From a virus, in IMG/VR virus record IMGVR_UViG_3300045988_115788: a stretch of DNA of 64,000 nt. The stretch is one strand, 5' to 3'. The position numbers and the translations under genes are program-made. Under the pieces are notes generated by a model. That model had not been told where the DNA came from, did no database searches, and saw only the letters and a list, made by a program, of their open reading frames with translations. Below are positions 13,446 to 62,906 of the stretch, piece after piece (the first letter of the stretch is position 1; every line of letters begins with the position of its first letter).

Positions 13446-13484
13446 AACAAAAAGCGCCACAAGACAATAATCTCGTAGCGCTTT
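13446..13484 (-). terminator. possible terminator after the RNA polymerase gene
   Basis: AAAGCGC/GCGCTTT stem (20-nt loop) followed by a T-run on the minus strand. Confidence 0.35.
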
Positions 13485-13488
13485 AAAT

Positions 13489-14155
13489 TTAGTTTCTTAA
13501 ATCAGCCATACATTCTTTTGATTTTCTTTTTCTTGATTCTCTAAAACATTTTTCACCACAATAAACTTGACTATCTTTTTCTGCCTTAAAGCGTTTTCCA
13601 CACTGAGGACAAATTTTTCCTAGATTGGCAGTGTTCACTTTCAAGTTTCCGACAATTTCTCTTCCGAAAGCACCCCACAATATTTTCTTCTTTGAGTTGG
13701 GCCGCACAGTATACAAATAAGTTACTAATGTGTTAATCACATAATCAAGACTTTTTTCTGTTGATTTTAACACCTTTTCACGAATTTGTTGATACATATA
13801 CGTTTCTTCTTTATTTACTCTATCTTCTGTTGTAGAATTAAATAGATATTGATGAGTATTCCAATAATCGTAAGTCTTGATAATCTCGCTATCAGAAGAA
13901 ATAGTAAATTCTTCTTTTTGATTCATTAACATTCGATAATCAAACTTACTTATTGTTTTACAATAACTAATCCTACTAGAAGGAATAGATTTACTAATAC
14001 GATTCATAGTTGAATCATTTGGTTTTTCAACTTGGTCTTTTGATTTATCTTTTGCAAACTCAAAGAAAGCTGGTAGCTTATTCTTTGTATATGACTTCAT
14101 CAACCTTTCTATGTCTTCTGGCGGTTCTGACAACCATAATGTTTTTGCGTAATCT
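13489..14155 (-). CDS. YonO/RdRP-like single-subunit RNA polymerase, exon 3
   Basis: In-frame extension upstream of ORF 13489..14133 reads DYAKTLW, completing the family VDxxKT motif; C-terminal CPQCG...CGEKC zinc ribbon. Confidence 0.7.
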
Positions 14156-14477
14156 CATTTCTACCGTCTTTTTCAAGATACTTTAACTTTGCTCAAAGCA
14201 AACGGATTAGACTATATCTTTACTTCATACTGAAGCAACTGGCACTTCAAAAATAGGAATTTCGCCTATTTTTTACTCCTTAAAAGGATAGTCGTTGCAC
14301 CTTCCCAGCAGGGCTTGGCACAGGATTGGCATGATAATTGTTTTTGTAAAATTTTTTAAACAATTATTTTAGCTATCCCCTGTTAGCCATTACTCTAATC
14401 ATCATTTCCTATGATTCCTATTCGTAGTAATGACACCCTATATTTATAGGTTCACCAGTTTAAGTGACCGATTGTTA
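14156..14477 (-). mobile_element. group I intron 2 in RNA polymerase gene (ORF-less)
   Basis: P1 AGUGAU|uaacaaucgGUCACU with U.G at splice site; terminal G at 14156; AAGAUAUAGUCUAA core (14207-14220); 80-nt core shared with intron 1. Confidence 0.7.
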
Positions 14478-14763
14478 ATCACTTGGTTGTTCCTCATGCA
14501 GAGCCATTTAACAATATTTAATTGTTCTTCTCCAACAGTTCCGCAATTCCACACCTTAGAAATATTATTTGACACAATTCCAATATTGCCGCCATTATAA
14601 GCCGCAATCATTCCATCGTACATTGTATTATTGTTAATCTCTTGACTTTTTGCTTTCTTTAATTCATACGCTAATGGAACTATACCTTCCATATTGCGCT
14701 TGGCGACTGTTGTTAATGTTTTATCTTTTATCACTAGCAATTTATCACCGTCACAATCGACAG
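14478..14763 (-). CDS. YonO/RdRP-like RNA polymerase, exon 2 (catalytic DxDGD)
   Basis: Reads (S)VDCDGDKLLVIKD...IGIVSNNISKVW...WLCMRNNQV(I); DxDGD is the metal-binding loop of two-barrel RNAPs and RdRPs. Confidence 0.7.
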
Positions 14764-15753
14764 CCTACTAACATAGTAGGTTAGACTATATCTTAACCAT
14801 GCCCTTTCAGGTTTAGGTTCTTCGCACTTCCACTTAAAGAATTTCACTTTAAATGTACTTTACTCGGTTACTCGGTTACACCTAAAAACGGTGCTTTCCT
14901 ATCCTTTCAATAGTCGTTTGAGATTTTATTTAAACTTACTTCAAACAGTCACTCTTTATATCTTTTATTTTTCTTCACATTACATTGCAAAGTGTGTGGA
15001 TTATAGTTGTGCGCTCGTGCAAAATCAGCAAGGCAAGTGACTTCTTCTTTTTCACCAGTTACAGAATTATAAGCATATCCACTGTATTTTCTTCTTGAGC
15101 GGTCAGAATTTGCTTTTCTTGAAATCCATCGACAATTATCTGCAACATAATTTTTATTTCCATTTATTCTATCTATTGTTAAATTATCACTATAACCATT
15201 GCTTTTTGCCCAAGCAGAAAAATTACTATAATCTAACCACTCTTCACATATAACAACACCTTTTCCACCATAATATTTATATGCTACGTTATTAGGATTA
15301 TAACATCTATCTTTCATGTCGCACCAAATTTGATACAATCTAGTTTTACTTTCGCCATGTTTTAAACCATGTTCATGTTTCCGCGACTCCCAATAACATC
15401 CGCAACTCATAGTGTTTCCACTTTTTAAATGTCTACCATAAACTACAACTTCTTTTCCACAATCACATTTACATTTCCATCGACTCATTCCATTTTGAAC
15501 ATCATAAAACTCCAAAACAGTAAGCATATTAAATTTTTGTCCTTTTAAATCTAGTCTTTTTGGCATTTTTACACCCCCTTTTTTGTTTTTGTAAGTTTAA
15601 ATAACTTTCCACAGGATTGCATTTCTGTTTCCCCTGTTAGCCATTATCCTAATCATCATTTCCTATGACTCCTTAACGTGATAATGACACCCTATATTTA
15701 TAGGTTCACGAAGTTTTATATCCTCATGTTTCCAAGAGGTACAGCAAGATTTT
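14764..15753 (-). mobile_element. group I intron 1 in RNA polymerase gene, carrying an HNH ORF
   Basis: P1 ACAGU|aaaaucuuGCUGU with U.G; terminal G at 14764; AAGAUAUAGUCUAA core (14781-14794); 15631-15710 nearly identical to 14377-14456. Confidence 0.7.
14949..15566 (-). CDS. intron-encoded HNH-type (His-Me finger) homing endonuclease
   Basis: 205 aa; WKCKCDCG...SCGC zinc motif shared with the 22305 and 37440 endonucleases; TIDRINGNKNYVADNCRWIS motif; lies inside intron 1. Confidence 0.7.
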   Translation of the reverse strand: MPKRLDLKGQKFNMLTVLEFYDVQNGMSRWKCKCDCGKEVVVYGRHLKSGNTMSCGCYWESRKHEHGLKHGESKTRLYQIWCDMKDRCYNPNNVAYKYYGGKGVVICEEWLDYSNFSAWAKSNGYSDNLTIDRINGNKNYVADNCRWISRKANSDRSRRKYSGYAYNSVTGEKEEVTCLADFARAHNYNPHTLQCNVKKNKRYKE

Positions 15754-17377
15754 ACTGTAAAATGCGACTAATTAAATCTCTAGTGCTAGTATAAATACAT
15801 TGTGTATTGCCAAACCATTTCTCAGTTAATTCATTCCGAACATTCTTTCTAATAGGCCACTCTCTGTAAAGATGAGGGCTTCTTAAACAAGCTAACTCTG
15901 AACCATTTCTAAAATTTTTAGTATAAACCTCTCCATCTTCAAGAAGTCCTTTTGGATTCTTTTCGCCTAAAAACAGCCATTGACAAAAAGCAAATAAATC
16001 TGGTGACACAAATTCATATTCACCATTAACTCTAAGCCTTCCTGCTTTCGCTTGTTTGATTAGACTCTTTTTGGTTTGCTTTAAAACATCTCTGCTGTAA
16101 GGGTCGCGAAACAATTCAGGATAAATCATTACAGCTTTTTGGAACCATGATTTTTCTTCATTTTCTTCAACAGCTCCAATCAATTTCATAGTAGTTCTAA
16201 AATCTTTACCTATATTTTCAGCTTCAAATTTAGACTGTTGAGTAATTTTTTCGATTTCTTTATCACTCATATCCGTCAAAGTCTGAAGCATCTGATAATT
16301 GATTTTAGCTTTAGGAATATTTTCTTCTTCTACATTACAGCAAGAAAATTCACAGCCATATTTTTTAAAATAATATTTATACTCTTCCCAAGAATAATAA
16401 ATTTTGTTCAACTTGAACTGACTAGCCGTAAGGATATTTTGAATATTTTCTTTAACAATATCATGCTTAATACCGTATATATCCTCTACAATAGCTCTGC
16501 CGCCAGGACAATACTCTTTTATCCAAGATTGAAAATCAAAAGAAACAAGTAAACCTTTTATCCACGGAGCGCGAACCATTCTTGTAGGAGACAACATTGT
16601 TATACCACAACCATCTGTATGTGGAATCGGTGTTTCTGTCCATTCTCGCGTAATTTCATAAGTTCGATAGTCAATAAAATCAACATGTCCAAAAACGCCT
16701 GTTTCAAAATCCGAAACAACAATAGTCCTATCAATGTCAAACTCAGGCCAAAAATCAGTAGCCGAATTATTCAAAGCAAGATAAGCACTATACTTATTTA
16801 CATTCATGCCGCCACGTCGGTTTAATTCTTCGGGAGTTAAGCCGCACATCATTTTCTTTTGAATAGCTAAATAAGCCGATTCTTTAACAAAAACTGCACG
16901 TTTTGTTCGTATTTGCCCAGCAGAAGCCGTTAATAGAATATATTTTTCATTATTATGAACAAATCCATTTTTAACAATTCCTTCAAACACTTGGAAGAAA
17001 AATACGCTTACAATCATAATGTCTTCTGTCAGTTCATTGGTTTTTATTCCTAATGCTCTAGTTAAAGAAGATTCAAAAAGAGAAATCACATTTTTGTCTT
17101 TCAATTCCTCTGGATTTAATTGCCGCGGCGAAGTATCTTTTAACCGTTCGTTCAATAAATCAGTCAATCTTTGCTTTTCCTTTTTTATGACTCTATTAAC
17201 AGAAGCTTTCTTCCATTTTTCTTCTAAGCCATCTTTCTTTTTCTTCTTTTTCTTTTCGTCTAAATTCTTTTTTAATTTATACAGCTTCAGCAAACGCCTA
17301 TGAACATATCTCTCTTCGCCTTCATAAAAAGCATCTGTTCCAATTCCATAAAGGTGTATTTGCTTATCAAGCGCCAT
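15754..17377 (-). CDS. YonO/RdRP-like RNA polymerase, exon 1
   Basis: 541-aa fragment ending LRSPHLYREWP...IYTSTRDLISRILQ, matching the (K/R)xPxLHxxD...SG(G)DxDGD architecture of cellular-type RdRPs. Confidence 0.7.
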
Positions 17378-17478: not shown

Positions 17479-17507
17479 ACTATACCATACTTTTTATTTT
17501 TTGTCAA
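17479..17507 (-). promoter_or_regulatory. sigma-A-type promoter with extended -10 for the RNA polymerase gene
   Basis: Minus strand TTGACA-17 nt-TGgTATAGT about 100 nt upstream of the start at 17377. Confidence 0.65.
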
Positions 17508-17551
17508 GAAACAAAAGCAGAGCCAGACAAAAATCTGACCCTACCATATAT

Positions 17552-33018: not shown

Positions 33019-33221
33019 AAAAGTATAAGTATACAAAAAAACACGCGTAAGAATGTGTAGAAGCCTACGCCCATTTGACGGGGTGGTTTGACGAAAGCAT
33101 AACTCAACGAGAAATGTTTGAGATGCTACGGTACAGGATGCAGTTTGGAGAAGCCGAAAGCCGAGTGATTGTTGCGGCGCTGGTTATGGCAGGAGCAAAA
33201 TTCAAAACAAGCGCAGAGTGA
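33015..33221 (+). pseudogene. small ORF interrupted by an in-frame TAA at codon 12
   Basis: Coupled ATG start, MKKYKYTKKHA-TAA-ECVEAYAHLTGWFDES...KFKTSAE; 56 open codons after the stop lack their own SD or start. Confidence 0.45.
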
Positions 33222-33292
33222 CGGGGGAGCAATCCCCTGGTAATGCGGCTAAGAGTGGTCACAAGCCCACCGCAAAGAAAGGATGGTTTTTT

Positions 33293-33631
33293 ATGACAAA
33301 CACAAAAGAAGAGCTGCGTCGCATGATGCAAGGTATCCGCCATGATTTGGAGCTTGCCTTTGAAGGTGAGCTTAAAAATGAGGACGGGGAGCCAGTAGAC
33401 CTCTGGGAATATCTGGCGGACGGCCTAGCGCTAGATTACCGCGTAGGCCCTGATAAAAGCCCTACTGCGTGCCGCGTGTGGCTTGTGTTGGGTGGGCCTA
33501 ATATCTGGGTGGATACCGAAACGGATTCTATTCACGGCGCTTGGGGGAGCGACAGAGAAGAAATTTATATCAACTCTGAGCTGTCCGATGCTATTTTAGA
33601 TTCTATGACCTTCGATTGGGATTGCTATTGA
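33293..33631 (+). CDS. hypothetical acidic protein
   Basis: Track ORF 33218..33631; first ATG at 33293 (MTNTKEEL...). Confidence 0.55.
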   Translation: MTNTKEELRRMMQGIRHDLELAFEGELKNEDGEPVDLWEYLADGLALDYRVGPDKSPTACRVWLVLGGPNIWVDTETDSIHGAWGSDREEIYINSELSDAILDSMTFDWDCY

Positions 33632-39070: not shown

Positions 39071-39147
39071 GGGCCTTTAGCTCAGTTGGTTAGAGCCTCC
39101 AGCTCATAACTGGAAGGTCGTGGTTTCGATTACCACAGGGCCCACCA
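39071..39147 (+). tRNA. tRNA with CAU anticodon (Met or lysidine-Ile), canonical cloverleaf, encoded CCA
   Basis: GGGCCTT/AGGGCCC acceptor, GCTC-AGTTGGTTA-GAGC D arm, loop CTCATAA, GTGGT-TTCGATT-ACCAC T arm. Confidence 0.85.
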
Positions 39148-39148
39148 T

Positions 39149-39223
39149 TGCGGGTTGAGTGTTGGCGCTCCGCTTGGTCTCATAAGCCAAGTTACCTCAG
39201 TTCGATTCTGGGACTCGCTTCCA
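39149..39223 (+). tRNA. second CAU-anticodon tRNA-like gene with non-canonical D region
   Basis: Identical loop CTCATAA, T arm CTCAG-TTCGATT-CTGGG, encoded CCA; U1:U72 mismatch; D region folds as 5-bp stem + TTGG loop. Confidence 0.55.
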
Positions 39224-39375
39224 CCCCATTTCAGCCACAATGACCTACGGGCTCGTGGCTGAAATGTTAAAACTTGTATCTACGCTGAAACTGTGCAAGC
39301 TCCTAACTCTTCGAGAAGGATGAAGGTGATTCAGCTCAAAGTTGGCAGTCTTTGAGAAGTTAAAACTGCCTCTAT

Positions 39376-39450
39376 ACTGGTGTAGCTCAATTGGTAGAGC
39401 GACTGCCTTGTAGCAGCAGGTCGGGGGGTCGAGTCCGTCCACCAGCTCCA
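39376..39450 (+). tRNA. tRNA-Thr(UGU)-like gene with aberrant anticodon arm
   Basis: D arm TAGCTCAATTGGTAGAGC and CTTGTA loop core resemble Firmicute tRNA-Thr; loop is 6 nt (or 9 in alternative fold); A1:C72 mismatch; encoded CCA. Confidence 0.5.
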
Positions 39451-39613
39451 GCGCAGATTGTTGAGTGATTTAACTGCGTGTAAACAAAAATAAAATCACA
39501 TTGCAAAAAGATTTTCCTTCGGGAGTAGCCAAAGATATGTTAGAGATAAGTATTTTTGGCGATTAAGCAAATCTGTTTGCGGTAAGCAGGGTATGAACCA
39601 AAAACCGCTTTAT

Positions 39614-39693
39614 GGCAAAGGTGATGTAACAGCAAACCATCTTAGTTTTGCGATGACTAAGTTATGCGGGTTGGAGTCCCGCCCTTGCCGCCA
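39614..39693 (+). tRNA. tRNA-like gene, anticodon GCG (Arg) in best fold
   Basis: Acceptor GGCAAAG/CCTTGCC (one mismatch), D stem GATG/CATC, loop TTGCGAT, T arm GCGGG-TTGGAGT-CCCGC, encoded CCA; lacks D-loop GG, has G at T-loop position 56. Confidence 0.45.
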
Positions 39694-40326: not shown

Positions 40327-40445
40327 ACAGAGAAATTGCAATCTTGAGGTGTCGTTACACCTGTATGTTGTGGAGGGTTACACAAACTTGAGTAGCTTTG
40401 GCGAAAGAGAATCCAATGAAACAGTAAGTTGATTTTTAATTAACA
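40327..40445 (+). ncRNA. omega-RNA-like right end of the TnpB remnant
   Basis: Structured tail; CACAAACTTGAGTAGCTTTGGC is homologous to 58910-58936 downstream of the other remnant. Confidence 0.4.
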
Positions 40446-40473: not shown

Positions 40474-41010
40474 ATGAAAAAGTTGATTGTTATGATTCTT
40501 GCAGGTATGATGGTATTGAGTATGGCGGCTTGCGAAAATCAGCCATCAGAAGAAGCAAGTAGTGAATCATTAACTCAAAACGCAACTCAGGAAGAGAGTT
40601 TTTATCTAAGCCCCAATACTATGGTCGCTCTTCAGCGTTGTTATAATAATCTTAAAGAACTGGGCGATGCTGGTATGGTTATTTGTGACGATGTGGTTGT
40701 GTTTGATGCAGGAAGCAAGAGCGGTGAAGTTGTTTGCGCTAAAGTTATGTATGCTGAATACGAAGGTGTTATTGAGGGTACAGAAATCGAAATTAGCTTT
40801 GATGAATATGGGCTGATTGATGGTATTTACGTTGAAGGCAATCCTTGCTTCATTGGCGCGAGAGAGTGGTATTTAAGCGCAGATGCGGAAACTCGAAGAA
40901 AAGCAAGCGAGAAATTTACTTGTTACAATGCCGCAAAGGTGGTATCAGAAATGCGCTCCTGGAAGGGATATGAAAGCACTTTTCTCGCAAGAAATTATCT
41001 AAAAAATTAA
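40474..41010 (+). CDS. lipoprotein
   Basis: MKKLIVMILAGMMVLSMAAC lipobox; AAGGAGG SD. Confidence 0.65.
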   Translation: MKKLIVMILAGMMVLSMAACENQPSEEASSESLTQNATQEESFYLSPNTMVALQRCYNNLKELGDAGMVICDDVVVFDAGSKSGEVVCAKVMYAEYEGVIEGTEIEISFDEYGLIDGIYVEGNPCFIGAREWYLSADAETRRKASEKFTCYNAAKVVSEMRSWKGYESTFLARNYLKN

Positions 41011-58841: not shown

Positions 58842-59015
58842 CATAACACTTTCAAGTTATTACAGATATGTACTGATATGTTAGTCAGGAATTTACGCCT
58901 ATGGAGAGCACAAGAACTTGTGAGTAGTGATTGGCTTGTCAACACAAAAACATACTCGTTGAAGTAGGAATGGAACATAAAAGTTTATAACTTTTTATAA
59001 GTTTTCAGTAACGGA
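58842..59015 (+). ncRNA. omega-RNA-like tail of the truncated TnpB, abutting the dnaE start
   Basis: CACAAGAACTTGTGAGTAGTGATTGGC is homologous to the tail of the 40074 remnant; ends a few nt before the ATG at 59022. Confidence 0.4.
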
Positions 59016-59021
59016 TGAAGA

Positions 59022-62000
59022 ATGGTAGATACTTATTTTTCATTACACAACCATAGTGATTATAGTAATCCAAGTTTAGGTTTTAGTGATTCTATTTGTA
59101 AAGTGAGTGGCTTGATTCAAAGAGCTTATGATATTGGTTTACAAGGTGTTACTATCACTGACCATGAATCACTTTCTTCTTTTGTTGAAGCATTAAATTA
59201 TTATGAATCAATGGAGCAAACTAGACCTTTTACTCTAGCTTTAGGCAATGAAATTTATCTTTTAACTGAAGAAGAATATGAAGAAAATCGTTATAACAAT
59301 GGTACGATTCCCTATTTTCATTTCATTCTTATCGCAAAAGACGATGAAGGTTATCGACAACTTTGTAAATTATCCACAAGAGCTTGGGAACGAGCTTATA
59401 TGAAAGGTTGTTGGCGTAGACCAACTTTAATGGAAGATTTGGTTGAAATTATTCAGCCAAATCAAGGACATGTGTTTGGATTGAGCGCTTGTTTAGGTTC
59501 TCGTATCGACAAAATGCTTCTTGAAAGAAACAAAGCACTGTTTGAAAAAACTGGACACCTAACACAGATTCAACAGATTTTTGGCAAAGATAATTTCTAT
59601 TTAGAAGTGCAACCTTCGGAAATAAAAGGAAACGAACAAAGCACTGTCAATACAATGCTTATGAAGGTAGCCAAACAACTGAAGCTCCCTATTGTTGTCA
59701 GTACAGATAGTCACTATTTAAAAAAAGATGATGCTATTATTCACGAAGTTTTTTTAAAAAGTCAAGATGGCGAAAGAGAAGTAAGTGATTTTTATGCTAC
59801 TGCTTACATGATGGAACCATCTGATTTACGAGAACATTTACGACATGAATTTAATGATGAAGAAATTGACTTTTTGATGTCAAATACAGTGGAATTAGGC
59901 CAACGTATAGGTAAATATAGTTTTAAGCATAAACCAATCATTCCTGAAATTCCTGAAGAAAAAATTCCTGATTTTAAAACCCAACATACTTTTAAACAAT
60001 ATTATTCTGAATATGAGTATTTTGGCTATTATGCTAAAGAAGATTTAGATATACATGAGCGTTATTTCTTTTATCAAATTGAGCAAGGACTAAAGCAAAA
60101 AGTTGTATTGAAACATAAGGATGTAAAAACCTATGTTGACCGGCTTAACACTGAATGGAGAGAACTAAAGTTAATTAGTGATGAATTAAATGGTTTCATG
60201 GTGGCATATTATTCAACTATGAGTAAAATAGTAGACCTTATGTGGGAAGCTAATAGTATAGTAGGCCCAGGAAGAGGCTCTTCTTCTGCTTTTTTAACTT
60301 GTTATTTGTTGGACATTACAGCTATAGACCCTGTTCCGCTAGGTGACTATATGCCTTATTGGAGACATCTTAGCGCAGAAAGAAAGGCGGAGCTTCCTGA
60401 TATTGATACTGACTCAGAACCCAGTAAAAAATACGCTATCATAGAAGAAGTTAAAAAGTTTTTTGGAGAAGATAAAGTATTAAATGTTGCTACATTTTCT
60501 TCAATTTCATCGAAAATAGCTATTGAAAAGGCTTGCCGTGGTTTAGGGATTGATGATACAACTGCGGCATATTTAAAATCTTTGATTCCTATTAATAGAG
60601 GCAAAATTGCTAAACTTAAAGATTGTTTATACGGTAGTGATAAAACACCTGTAGTTCATGCTCTTGTTGAAGAAATGAAAAAATACCCTAATCTTGAAAA
60701 GTGCGCTTTAGGGTTGTGCGACATTATTTCTCAAAAGGGACTTCATGCTGCGGGCCTTACGATTAGTAATAAGCCATATACAGAATATTGTAGTATGATG
60801 AGAGCGCCTAACGGCACTCCTTGTACTTGCTACAATCTTTGGGACGCAGAAGAAGTAAGTTTAGTTAAATTTGATTTGTTGACAGTTGATGCTCTACAAA
60901 AAGTTCATGGTGCATTAGACGCCATGGTAAATGATGGAACCATTGAATGGCAGGGCAATCTTCGAGACACATACAACAAATATATTCACCCAGACGTTAT
61001 TGATTATGACACTCCTGAGATGTGGGATTGTATCAATAAAATGTATTCTATATTTCAGTGGGCCACACCTTTTTCTGTTGCGGCACTAAAGCAAATTCAG
61101 CCAACAACTTTATCAGAACTTTCAGCAGGAAATAGCCTAATTAGACTTATGCCAGACGGAGACGGTGAAACACCTCTTGATACCTATGTTCGATATAAAA
61201 ATCATCCTGAACAATGGAGTGTAGAAGCTTCTGCGTATGGGCTTAATGAAGAAGAAAAATCAATCATAGCCAAATACACCAAAGACGCTCATTATCTTGC
61301 AGATTGTCAAGAAAAGATTATGCGACTTTCTATGGATGAACATATTGCTGGTTATACTCTAAAAGAAAGCAACCAACTTCGCAAAAGCGTAGCTAAAAAA
61401 GACGAAGCTTTGCAAGAAAAAGCCAAGCAACAATTTTATGAATACGGAAAAAAGCAAGGCACTAGACAAGTGATGCTTGATTATGTTTGGAATGTACTGT
61501 TTAGTAAATCATTTGGATATTCTTTTTCAAGCATCCACAGTTGGGCTTATTCAATGATTGCTCTTCAGGAACTAAACATTTTTTATCATTACGGTGCTAT
61601 ATATTGGAACATTGGTTGTTTACTTACAGAAACAAGTGACGAAGGGTCTGGTTCTGGTGCAGATTACGGTAAGATAGCAAAAGCAATTTATAAAATGCTT
61701 GCATTTGGTGTAAATATTGTATCTCCTAATGTTAATGAATCTAAAGACAACTTTACTCCAAACGCAAAAGAGAACACTATTTATTACGGATTAGCTACAA
61801 TTTCTGGAATTAACTCTCAGATAGCGAATCAAATCATTTCTATGCGGCCTTATAATTCATTTTTAGATTTTTATCGCAAAAATACATTTCCTGGTTCTCT
61901 CGTTACAAAGTCTAAAATTATTCAACTAATCAAAGCTGGATGTTTTGATTGTTTTAATACAAATAGAATTAAGGTGATGCAAGAATATTTCTGTTTATCT

Positions 62001-62906
62001 ACGCCACAAAAAACAAAGCTTACAACATCTAATTTGCCTGAAATGATTAAAATTGGTGTTGAAATTCCAGAAGAACTTATCAAACCTTATAATTTTAAAA
62101 AGTATGTTTGTCAAAAGCAATTCTTTTACAGTGTACATCCTTTGTCTAAATCTAAAAAATTATATAAAGTAGATACTACTGTAATGTCATATTGTGAGGA
62201 ATACTTTATTTCCGTAATGAAAGAAGGGGCAGATTATTGGTTTGTTGATAGCGAGGTCGTTATTTGCGACAAATCTATTGATAAATGCTTTAAGCCTGTT
62301 TTTAATGAGTTAAAGTCTTGGCTACAAAGACCTGAAACAATTAAAGAATATAACAAAAAAGCTATTATTGCCGCGTACAACACACTAGATTGTGTAGATG
62401 TCGATAGATGGGCAATGCAATCTACGAGTTATTACCATAACAACGGACATGAATTAAAGAATTTAGATTTTAAGCGTTACGGCATTAGTAGATTTTCCGA
62501 CCTTCCAGAAGAACCAGTATTTGTTGAAAAAAACTTTGGACAGCGTTCTTGGCGGCAATACGAAATCAGCGCCATAGCTGGAACATTGATTGCTAAAGAC
62601 GATACTAAGCATATAATTACTTTGCTAACTACTGATTATGATGTAGTAAACTGTAAGCTTACTAGAGAAGCCTATGCTCATTATAAACGAGTGATTAGTT
62701 CTGGTAGTGGGAAAGATAAAGTAGTGTATGATGATGCTTGGATTCAAAGAGGGTCTTTGCTGATTGTTTGTGGCTATCGAAACGGTGACGATTTTAGATG
62801 TAAAAAATACAAAAACAGTGTATATGACCATCAAATGATATTGATTAAACATGTATATGAAGATGGGAGTGCAGACTTGCAGACGGAAAGGGTGTTGATG
62901 GAATAA
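59022..62906 (+). CDS. dnaE: DNA polymerase III alpha subunit (DnaE-type, N-terminal PHP domain)
   Basis: 1294 aa; PHP motifs HNHSDYS, ITDHES; polymerase core GPGRGSSSAF and PDIDTD catalytic aspartates. Confidence 0.85.
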   Translation: MVDTYFSLHNHSDYSNPSLGFSDSICKVSGLIQRAYDIGLQGVTITDHESLSSFVEALNYYESMEQTRPFTLALGNEIYLLTEEEYEENRYNNGTIPYFHFILIAKDDEGYRQLCKLSTRAWERAYMKGCWRRPTLMEDLVEIIQPNQGHVFGLSACLGSRIDKMLLERNKALFEKTGHLTQIQQIFGKDNFYLEVQPSEIKGNEQSTVNTMLMKVAKQLKLPIVVSTDSHYLKKDDAIIHEVFLKSQDGEREVSDFYATAYMMEPSDLREHLRHEFNDEEIDFLMSNTVELGQRIGKYSFKHKPIIPEIPEEKIPDFKTQHTFKQYYSEYEYFGYYAKEDLDIHERYFFYQIEQGLKQKVVLKHKDVKTYVDRLNTEWRELKLISDELNGFMVAYYSTMSKIVDLMWEANSIVGPGRGSSSAFLTCYLLDITAIDPVPLGDYMPYWRHLSAERKAELPDIDTDSEPSKKYAIIEEVKKFFGEDKVLNVATFSSISSKIAIEKACRGLGIDDTTAAYLKSLIPINRGKIAKLKDCLYGSDKTPVVHALVEEMKKYPNLEKCALGLCDIISQKGLHAAGLTISNKPYTEYCSMMRAPNGTPCTCYNLWDAEEVSLVKFDLLTVDALQKVHGALDAMVNDGTIEWQGNLRDTYNKYIHPDVIDYDTPEMWDCINKMYSIFQWATPFSVAALKQIQPTTLSELSAGNSLIRLMPDGDGETPLDTYVRYKNHPEQWSVEASAYGLNEEEKSIIAKYTKDAHYLADCQEKIMRLSMDEHIAGYTLKESNQLRKSVAKKDEALQEKAKQQFYEYGKKQGTRQVMLDYVWNVLFSKSFGYSFSSIHSWAYSMIALQELNIFYHYGAIYWNIGCLLTETSDEGSGSGADYGKIAKAIYKMLAFGVNIVSPNVNESKDNFTPNAKENTIYYGLATISGINSQIANQIISMRPYNSFLDFYRKNTFPGSLVTKSKIIQLIKAGCFDCFNTNRIKVMQEYFCLSTPQKTKLTTSNLPEMIKIGVEIPEELIKPYNFKKYVCQKQFFYSVHPLSKSKKLYKVDTTVMSYCEEYFISVMKEGADYWFVDSEVVICDKSIDKCFKPVFNELKSWLQRPETIKEYNKKAIIAAYNTLDCVDVDRWAMQSTSYYHNNGHELKNLDFKRYGISRFSDLPEEPVFVEKNFGQRSWRQYEISAIAGTLIAKDDTKHIITLLTTDYDVVNCKLTREAYAHYKRVISSGSGKDKVVYDDAWIQRGSLLIVCGYRNGDDFRCKKYKNSVYDHQMILIKHVYEDGSADLQTERVLME

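Follow-up and report, generated by a model that had tools for sequence, protein, structure and literature searches.

YonO of phage SPbeta is an experimentally characterised DNA-dependent RNA polymerase which transcribes the late genes of the phage. Its Asp triad (DxDGD) is essential and mutation of the triad abolishes activity (Forrest et al. 2017, PMC5467207). It is textbook knowledge that mobile group I introns equipped with endonuclease genes occupy conserved sites in the essential genes of phages (reviewed in PMC12908238), and endonuclease-bearing introns in phage RNA polymerase genes have been published as well (PMC11620839, PMC12350094, PMC7886860). Concerning the YonO lineage, our literature search found no paper joining YonO or phi3T with "group I intron", and neither the YonO paper (PMC5467207) nor a preprint on SPbeta relatives mentions introns in yonO. 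Endonuclease-bearing introns in the YonO gene family have apparently not been described before. In this study, we analyse a stretch of 64,000 nucleotides of viral DNA (IMG/VR record IMGVR_UViG_3300045988_115788, hereafter the window), which is best explained as DNA of an SPbeta-like phage of the human gut. We consider it highly probable that positions 13489-17377 on the minus strand are one YonO-type single-chain RNA polymerase gene in three exons, interrupted by two related group I introns. Both insertion sites lie in catalytic or invariant motifs. We determine the exact exon boundaries, give structural information about both introns and identify alleles of the same gene with other intron contents.

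Three open reading frame (ORF) fragments lie on the minus strand of this segment (15752..17377, 14444..14740 and 13489..14133, with 541, 98 and 214 codons), and a further ORF of 205 codons occupies the first gap. A first-pass annotation of the sequence had taken the three fragments for pieces of one protein. Its coordinates were confirmed, and the peptides it quoted (..STRDLISRILQ*, AVDCDGDKLLV, ..WLCMRNNQVI and DYAKT) were all located. The proposed likeness to YonO and to RNA-dependent RNA polymerases (RdRP) is borne out by colinearity with YonO, a Pfam RdRP match above cut-off, uninterrupted homologues and an allele without intron 1. Searched against deposited phages by tblastn, the joined protein aligns in a single piece with yonO of SPBc2 (SPbeta) (43% identity, residues 2-836, 97% of length); comparable matches come from Psychrobacillus phage Perkons and from a phage of Clostridium botulinum. 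The family phrog_8308 matches residues 3-827 in one stretch (E 9.5e-244), and Pfam RdRP (PF05183) matches residues 124-675, crossing both junctions, with 46.4 bits against a cut-off of 23.8. A multiple alignment with YonO homologues is colinear across both junctions as well. No match to the joined protein was found among PDB sequences (phmmer), nor any match to the DNA of the locus among deposited phages (megablast).

The exons retain all invariant residues of the YonO family, including the Asp triad. Across 70 family members of 29-63% identity, no variation occurs at D543, D545, D547, N633, D637 or K640. With YonO the protein shares the triad, RSPHL, IDxAKT and the C-terminal Cys4 motifs, the latter forming a zinc-finger-like tail at the end of exon 3. 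The genes in the neighbourhood are SPbeta-like too (YonJ_CC, YonD_N, HU, PhoH and portal protein). By orthology, the product would have DNA-dependent RNA polymerase activity.

The exact position of the first junction follows from an allele that lacks intron 1. A protein cluster of 334 members (P0001), 97% identical to the window protein, represents this allele, which is also found in a near-identical phage (locus L009). It reads ..SRILQFDCDGD.., and joining CAGT|TCGATTGT in the window reproduces exactly that. The L009 DNA at the site is CGCATCCTCCAAT|TTGACTGTGACGGC, and the window has CGCATTTTACAGT and TCGATTGTGACGGT on the two sides of the intron; the intron-less sequence of the L009 type runs ..AGTCGCATCCTCCAATTTGACTGTGACGGCGACCGCTTATTAG.. 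Read against the window DNA, the intron-less allele places the 5' end of intron 1 after the U of CAGU and its 3' end after the G of ..UAGGCUG (14761). Intron 1 therefore has 993 nt, not the 990 nt given in the first-pass annotation, and the exons sum to 2574 nt, encoding 857 amino acids. The earlier sum of 2577 nt (858 codons plus stop) was arithmetically right for the junctions then assumed. Likewise, the terminal G claimed for intron 2 (14156) stands, but that claimed for intron 1 (14764) gives way to 14761. The corrected junction, CAG TTC GAT TGT GAC GGT GAT, encodes QFDCDGD and has the length of every homologue, and only if exon 2 is read from this splice site does the product contain D543, D545 and D547. 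ORF fragment 1 ends with a UAA that is itself cut by the 5' splice site, so that its U is the last base of the exon. Three other joins were considered and rejected. The earlier one, CAGT^CTGTCGATTG (QSVDCDGD), adds a residue absent from all homologues and puts G14764 inside the P9 stem; a 3' splice after UCG (QYCDGD) loses the first Asp; and 5' splice sites farther upstream delete the conserved LQ.

Junction 2 was correctly placed in the first-pass annotation, as was the length of intron 2, 322 nt without an ORF. Homologues read ..NNAVIDYAKTLWLPEPP.. where the window reads ..NNQVI|DYAKTLWLSEPP.., without a gap, and more than 100 uninterrupted homologues of 60-63% identity show no indel there. 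The break splits the codon of Ile636 between its second and third bases (GTGAT|A GAT). In the RNA, the predicted ligated junctions are ..UUACAGU^UCGAUUGUG.. and ..CAAGUGAU^AGAUUACGC.., which in reads would appear as CGCATTTTACAGT^TCGATTGTGACGG and CAACCAAGTGAT^AGATTACGCAAAAAC. That the introns sit in the two most conserved motifs of the protein, as had been stated, goes too far: among 9-residue segments compared in the 70 family members, the two motifs take 9th and 7th place, and RSPHLYREW is among those ranked higher.

Each of the two gaps is a group I intron, and the evidence supports placing them in a large phage family to which the SPO1-type DNA-polymerase intron also belongs. The group I reading of the first-pass annotation is upheld by an Rfam match to intron 2, by profile matches to both introns and by covariation of the helices P3, P4, P6, P7, P7.2 and P8. 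The sequence signs it had named were found too: helix P1 with U.G at the splice site in both introns (ACAGU|..GCUGU, and AAGUGAU|..GUCACUU at 14484-14478/14468-14462), the J8/7-P7 core word AAGATATAGTC at 14794-14784 and 14220-14210, and a shared 5' core, 88.5% identical over 87 nt. Relatives at the same insertion sites keep the P1 pairing. A 23-nt core word, GTGAACCTANAAANNTAGGGTGT, has exactly two copies in the window, one per intron, where chance would give none, and occurs in at least 120 viral-contig loci. Searching with core words revealed no further introns of the family in the window. A sequence profile of 27 family cores from outside the window was run with nhmmer on the 64 kb and matched only three times, always on the minus strand and within the two introns. 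Intron 2 is matched at 14458-14210 (E 2e-42). Intron 1 is matched in two halves, at 15713-15597 (model positions 2-131, E 9.6e-23) and at 14932-14784 (model positions 132-242, E 1.2e-12), which abut in the model at 131/132 and flank the ORF.

Covariation was scored on 29 aligned family cores, including both window introns, at 65 pairs in helices read off the window introns. Standard pairs fill 87.3% of the cells as compared to 34-44% in controls with slid partners, and the covariation score is 0.477 as compared to 0.08-0.12. Both sides change in 48 of the 65 pairs, and none of 500 shuffles reaches any of the observed measures. The pseudoknotted P3/P7 core covaries strongly and so do P4, P6, P7.2 and P8. 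All four Watson-Crick combinations occur at four positions of P3, and P7 alternates between GACUA/UAGUC and GACCA/UGGUC across the family. In every one of 82 family copies, covariation links the strand preceding P8 to the segment that directly precedes the core word. All 82 have a P3 partner, with 7 or more of 8 pairs formed, between P7 and J8/7 (shuffled partners: mean 50, maximum 61); in most copies this partner consists of YGC plus the reverse complement and stands 14-32 nt before J8/7. Hairpins P7.1 and P7.2 lie between P7 and the 3' strand of P3, which we take to be a hallmark of subgroup IA. The 5' core is further homologous to an annotated intron of the SPO1-like phage Adastra, where the DNA polymerase is annotated as a spliced coding sequence with a homing endonuclease in the gap. 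Many Firmicutes phages, Adastra being one, have split genes for DNA polymerase or terminase with intergenic gaps that this 5' core matches. Two other kinds of intervening sequence were considered: inteins were rejected on the in-frame stops and ribozyme cores, group II introns on size and core.

All core helices are intact in both introns and match the covariation pattern of the family. Intron 1 has a P6 of 14 bp which closes the loop holding the 205-amino-acid (aa) ORF and its Shine-Dalgarno sequence. Intron 2 pairs AAGUGAU/GUCACUU in P1 and GACUA/UAGUC in P7, has no P2, a longer P5 and a short P6. In both, an AAUC in the guide loop can pair with a GAUU near the start of the next exon (P10); for intron 1, the sequence itself shows the two partners, AAUC at 15751-15748 and the GAUU in exon 2. 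The first-pass annotation called the introns siblings. This holds for the 5' core, in which they are each other's nearest relatives (88.6%), but not for the 3' core, whose nearest relatives are the loci L011c for intron 2 and L127 for intron 1. Likeness limited to half of each intron suggests exchange between the two. Between P3 and P4 (15642-15704 and 14388-14450, minus strand; alignment A2 columns 11-83) both carry an insertion shared with their family, consisting of a near-invariant hairpin, CCUAN-AAAN-NUAGG, and a 6-bp stem in the context GUGU-NNNNNN ... N'N'N'N'N'N'-GCUAAC, both covarying, the stem freely; in its longer forms the stem surrounds a conserved AGGAAAUGA element. Rfam aligns this hairpin-plus-stem insertion as P2/P3. 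We did not adopt its P2/P3 assignment for intron 2, since the P3 5' strand it takes, AAUGGCUA, cannot pair in intron 1.

Intron 1 encodes in its P6 loop what we call a homing-endonuclease-like protein, with a Shine-Dalgarno sequence 6 nt upstream of the ORF. The label HNH from the first-pass annotation is partly sustained: PHROG HNH endonuclease families match (phrog_374 "HNH endonuclease", E 2.8e-61), but no Pfam HNH family does and the catalytic His is not evident. The structure model of the ORF product reaches a predicted local distance difference test (pLDDT) score of 89.6, and its neighbours in BFVD are phage proteins annotated HNH/AP2, down to E 1e-23. Its family comprises 435 homologues with almost no Pfam annotation; labels of relatives are HNH, AP2 or DNA-binding. 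An N-terminal CxCxCG...SCGC cluster, YGGRGI and IDRI..NCRW are conserved features of the family.

Several observations weigh against the interpretation as a gene with two functional group I introns. Intron 2 aligns end to end to Rfam Intron_gpI (RF00028) with 47.1 bits (E 5e-10, in a search of 4.2 kb), 3 bits short of the gathering cut-off of 50 bits, and the same search gave no Rfam match for intron 1, so that the covariance-model check proposed with the first-pass annotation picked up intron 2 only, and that below cut-off. The failure on intron 1 is explained by the 0.6-kb ORF which splits its core. Rfam scans of the whole window, at the gathering threshold and permissively, yielded no group I match. 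Rfam also fails on phi3T, Goe14, BUCT083 and 20 viral loci carrying relatives; in our own reading, its group I model is insensitive to this intron family. Since it misses the relatives, our own covariation analysis and the homology with annotated introns carry most of the weight of the group I call. We could not assign the insertion between P3 and P4 to a named group I subgroup. As for the endonuclease, no Pfam HNH family matches at E values up to 1, the HNH-like motif IDRI..nGnYeP.NCRW has an invariant Arg at the position expected for His (alignment A4), and I-HmuI, although the best PDB fold match of the model, is a weak one (E 0.15, template modelling score ~0.2). Splicing itself we infer from the sequence.

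Table 1. Positions of the polymerase exons, intron elements and flanking signals in the window.
Feature	Position	Strand	Description
Exon 1	15754..17377	-	1624 nt; residues 1-541 and first base of Phe542
Exon 2	14478..14760	-	283 nt; rest of Phe542, DCDGD..., to first two bases of Ile636
Exon 3	13489..14155	-	667 nt including stop; third base of Ile636, then DYAKT...
Intron 1	14761..15753	-	group I, 993 nt; terminal G at 14761
Intron 1 guide GCUGU	15741..15745	-	pairs with exon ACAGU (15758-15754), U.G at splice site
Intron 1 5' core	15591..15739	-	P2 15739-15722 with GAAA loop; P3 5' strand CUUCGUG 15713-15707
Intron 1 hairpin CCUAUAAAUAUAGG	15704-15691	-	
Intron 1 stem CAUUAUC/GAUAAUG	15686-15680 / 15648-15642	-	
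Intron 1 P4	15637-15631 / 15616-15611	-	P6 5' strand 15604-15591; P5 minimal
Intron 1 ORF, homing-endonuclease-like, 205 aa	14949..15566	-	in P6 loop; own Shine-Dalgarno AAGGGGGUG 15580-15572
Intron 1 3' core	14764..14939	-	P6 3' strand 14939-14926; J6/7-P7 CAAACGACUA 14920-14911
Intron 1 P3 3' strand UGCGAAG	14826-14820	-	P8 14819-14795; preceded by long P7.1/P7.2 region
Intron 1 J8/7-P7 AAGAUAUAGUC	14794-14784	-	P9 hairpin 14780-14764, then CUG
Intron 2	14156..14477	-	group I, 322 nt, no ORF; terminal G 14156, end ..AAAUG
Intron 2 P3 AACUGGUG/UGCCAGUU	14460-14453 / 14244-14237	-	
Intron 2 P7.1, P7.2, P8, P9	14288-14277; 14273-14249; 14236-14222; 14202-14188	-	
Promoter-like site	17479..17507	-	TTGACA-17-TATAGT with TG; sigma-70 consensus match only
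Terminator-like hairpin	13449..13484	-	GCGCUACGAGA-UUAUUG-UCUUGUGGCGC then UUUUU, just past stop codon

The promoter-like site matches the sigma-70 consensus at 11 of 12 positions, is the best in the region and lies about 100 nt upstream of the ATG. By this consensus match, it would suit transcription by the host polymerase in the early or middle phase, which one would expect for the gene of a late-gene polymerase. A terminator-like hairpin with a U-run (17516-17545, minus strand) stands directly upstream of it and separates the polymerase gene from a dCMP-deaminase-like gene cluster. The hairpin past the stop codon is not among the output of the terminator scan; spurious Rfam matches did flag it as a hairpin.

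Close relatives of the window differ in their introns. Contigs from three other samples hold the gene with both introns at 98.4-99.2% identity, and the index of the collection lists exon 1 in 47 blocks. Samples carrying the phage include ERR16004206, ERR11478087 and ERR14114670. Intron 1 is polymorphic between close relatives, being absent from the 97%-identical allele described above. The near-identical phage L009 lacks intron 1 and has intron 2 with an extra insert of 810 nt. This insert (L009 8032-8842) sits in the P5 loop and carries an ORF of 134 aa with weak matches only, to helix-turn-helix/sigma-like and "endonuclease" families; it is absent from intron 2 of the window. Another locus, L035, shares about 99% identity with the window over exons 2-3; its intron, 5 nt downstream of site 1 (UUCGAU|), is a different one and holds a different ORF. 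Between the exons of the window and those of the intron-less L009 allele there are 79 differences, of which 14, mostly synonymous, are concentrated at -7..+29 nt of the site; the surrounding 600 nt show 0-2 differences per 60 nt. This cluster is the pattern that co-conversion during homing, or escape of the target site, would leave.

The first-pass annotation regarded the arrangement as unusual and possibly regulatory. Nothing in the sequence points to a regulatory role, and the arrangement recurs widely in YonO-family genes, besides the published introns in other phage RNA polymerase genes. Among the 150 best representatives of clusters at 50% identity, 10 end in ..LQFD and 5 in ..NNxxI(D/K), so that about 10% are split at these two hot spots; no other truncation point recurs in this set. 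In phi3T, SPR, Goe11, Goe14, BUCT083 and SPbetaL3-L7, a homologous intron interrupts yonO following ..NNFTID. Among the core-word matches listed, about 45 loci adjoin YonO-like genes. L058 and L103, whose proteins are 44-50% identical to that of the window, contain an intron at either hot spot. Insertion has taken place at two alternative points per hot spot, 4-5 nt from each other: at hot spot 1, CAGU| (1a; window, L058, L103) and UUCGAU| (1b; L035, L052), and at hot spot 2, GUGAU| (2a; window, L060) and CGAU| (2b; phi3T and others). L060 is a 63%-identical YonO homologue whose intron (L060 1600-1934) lies exactly at site 2a (CAAGUGAU|), and its intron ORF opens with a GIY-YIG-like motif, YKITNIVNGFVYIGQT; one site thus serves introns with different types of endonuclease.

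More distant relatives were noted as well. Loci L013 (6724-7920), L011 and L038 hold three core words each within 1-4 kb, beside a distant (~29%) YonO-like gene which tblastn matches only as far as about residue 501, an indication that some polymerase genes contain three introns or more. Among GTDB representative genomes, contigs L132-L139 carry 58-66% identical YonO homologues in metagenome-assembled genomes labelled Gastranaerophilales, Bacilli, Rickettsiales, Eubacteriales and Clostridia. The bin taxa of the related contigs in gut genomes are mutually inconsistent, and the contigs are most likely phage contigs mis-binned into bacterial genomes. Several of these matches span ~1 kb more than the protein needs and probably contain introns too.

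The following course of events may be proposed. Mobile group I introns from a single widespread phage family would have entered a yonO gene on two occasions, intron 1 breaking the Phe codon immediately ahead of the catalytic Asp triad (Q-F|DCDGD) and intron 2 the Ile codon next to the invariant Asp in NNxxIDxAKT. The gene would probably be transcribed from its own sigma-70-like promoter into a single pre-mRNA. Each intron would then fold with the U.G of P1 at the 5' site, the pseudoknotted P3-P8/P7, the P7.1/P7.2 hairpins and the terminal G, and would excise itself by guanosine-initiated transesterification, the three exons being ligated into the 2574-nt frame of the 857-aa polymerase. On co-infection, the putative endonuclease of intron 1 would cut intron-less alleles, and recombinational repair would copy the intron in, dragging flanking exon sequence along. 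Intron 2 would be an ORF-less derivative, the same intron carrying the 810-nt ORF-bearing insert in the near-identical phage.

The fragments could instead be the remains of a dead gene, three pseudogene pieces separated by decayed or splicing-incompetent introns. The sub-threshold or missing Rfam scores, the intron 1 ORF without a demonstrable catalytic site and the loss of any endonuclease gene from intron 2 speak for this. Decay is hard to reconcile with core helices that are all intact in both introns and fit the covariation pattern, with exons that keep every invariant residue, and with a two-intron allele that recurs at 98-99% identity in several samples, exon 1 being found in 47 blocks of the collection. 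Moreover, YonO is needed for late-gene transcription in SPbeta (PMC5467207). We regard a dead gene as very improbable. Still less credit is due to the idea of a split polymerase put together from three separately translated fragments, with no RNA splicing involved. Split RNA polymerase subunits do occur in jumbo phages, and every fragment is an ORF with a possible start codon. However, such a polymerase would lack DCDGD and DYAKT, which precede the TTG "starts" of fragments 2 and 3, both breaks interrupt a codon, and the gaps are conserved ribozyme cores instead of intergenic spacers.

A further possibility adds to the spliced-gene interpretation instead of replacing it. The introns might be more than selfish, either since the endonuclease acts against co-infecting intron-less SPbeta-like phages or since splicing gates the timing of late transcription; we think this rather unlikely. 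In an extended form, offered with the same reserve, the DNA of the yonO catalytic site would be a battleground of co-infecting SPbeta-like phages, whose competing introns and endonucleases might serve as weapons against the late transcription of the rival. The endonucleases (HNH-like, GIY-YIG and others) would act as PhiPA3 gp210 does on PhiKZ: gp210 nicks the virion RNA polymerase gene of PhiKZ and provides a competitive advantage (PMC11620839). The 14 differences at -7..+29 nt of the intron-less allele could be read as escape from cleavage or as co-conversion, and to take the dense synonymous recoding near the site in intron-less alleles for escape is speculative to a similar degree. The two alternative insertion points per hot spot would suit such a contest. 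Plain homing predicts the same patterns, though, intron 2 has no endonuclease gene, and the sequence says nothing direct on fitness or regulation.

The window contains other RNA elements. A Type-P5 twister self-cleaving ribozyme (33212-33270, plus strand; 62.1 bits, cut-off 37.6) overlaps the start of the ORF 33218-33631. Two RAGATH-18 motifs exceed the Rfam cut-off, at 58898-58970 and 40367-40427 (plus strand; 67.6 and 55.3 bits); the former lies ~50 nt upstream of the gene for a 1294-aa DNA polymerase (59022-62906), the latter just upstream of the ORF 40474-41010. In a tRNA cluster at 39071-39693 (plus strand), ARAGORN predicts tRNA-Met 39071-39147, tRNA-Met 39149-39223 and tRNA-Arg(GCG) 39614-39693. 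Rfam places tRNAs at 39071-39144 and 39376-39447 and disagrees with ARAGORN on 3 of 4 calls.

No new mechanism is revealed by this locus. Its significance lies in a late-gene RNA polymerase which in many phage and metagenome records, including those of the model phages phi3T and SPR, is annotated as two or three "hypothetical proteins". Recognition of the introns restores an enzyme of 857 aa with its catalytic triad. It also brings to light a large and well-covarying phage intron family, with at least 119 distinct copies among the viral loci listed, which the Rfam group I model misses. Intron-colonised phage RNA polymerases are thereby extended from the multisubunit enzymes of jumbo phages to the single-chain YonO lineage. 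Phages phi3T (with intron) and SPbeta (without) offer a tractable Bacillus system for asking whether introns of this kind bring about competition among phages.

Compared to the systems described so far, the window gene stands closest to SPbeta YonO (PMC5467207), an ortholog with a similar gene neighbourhood. SPbeta yonO is uninterrupted and its host is a Bacillus, whereas the window gene has two introns and the host is a gut bacterium, not Bacillus. The split yonO genes of phi3T, SPR, Goe11, Goe14, BUCT083 and SPbetaL3-L7 contain introns of the same family at the same hot spot, NNxxID|xAKT, some with a GIY-YIG ORF. They differ in having a single intron, inserted after the Asp codon, 4 nt downstream of window site 2, and none at DxDGD; their records list yonO_1, a hypothetical protein and yonO_2, or two hypothetical proteins, and the intron is not annotated. 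With the SPO1-type DNA polymerase intron and its HNH nicking enzyme I-HmuI, window intron 1 has the architecture of an ORF within an intron in common, and the introns of SP8 and Adastra are ~75% identical over 80 nt to the 5' core of the window; there the host gene is a DNA polymerase, and the window ORF lacks the canonical HNH histidine. In PhiPA3, too, a group I intron interrupts an RNA polymerase gene of the phage; its endonuclease, gp210, is of the HNH type (Birkholz et al. 2024, PMC11620839). The interrupted gene encodes a multisubunit virion polymerase of a jumbo phage, and nicking and competitive effect were established by experiment, whereas the window is known from sequence alone. For AR9/PBS1, a phage RNA polymerase gene is described with more than one self-splicing intron bearing homing endonuclease genes (PMC12350094); the polymerase is multisubunit and one of the introns is group II, unlike in the window. 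In the crAss-like Zeta group, finally, the ORFs of single-chain two-barrel polymerases are disrupted in conserved motifs including DxDxD (Yutin et al. 2021, PMC7886860), and the genomes are dense with group I introns. These polymerases belong to a very distant lineage, and their disruptions are only partly explained and are combined with stop-codon recoding (PMC7886860).

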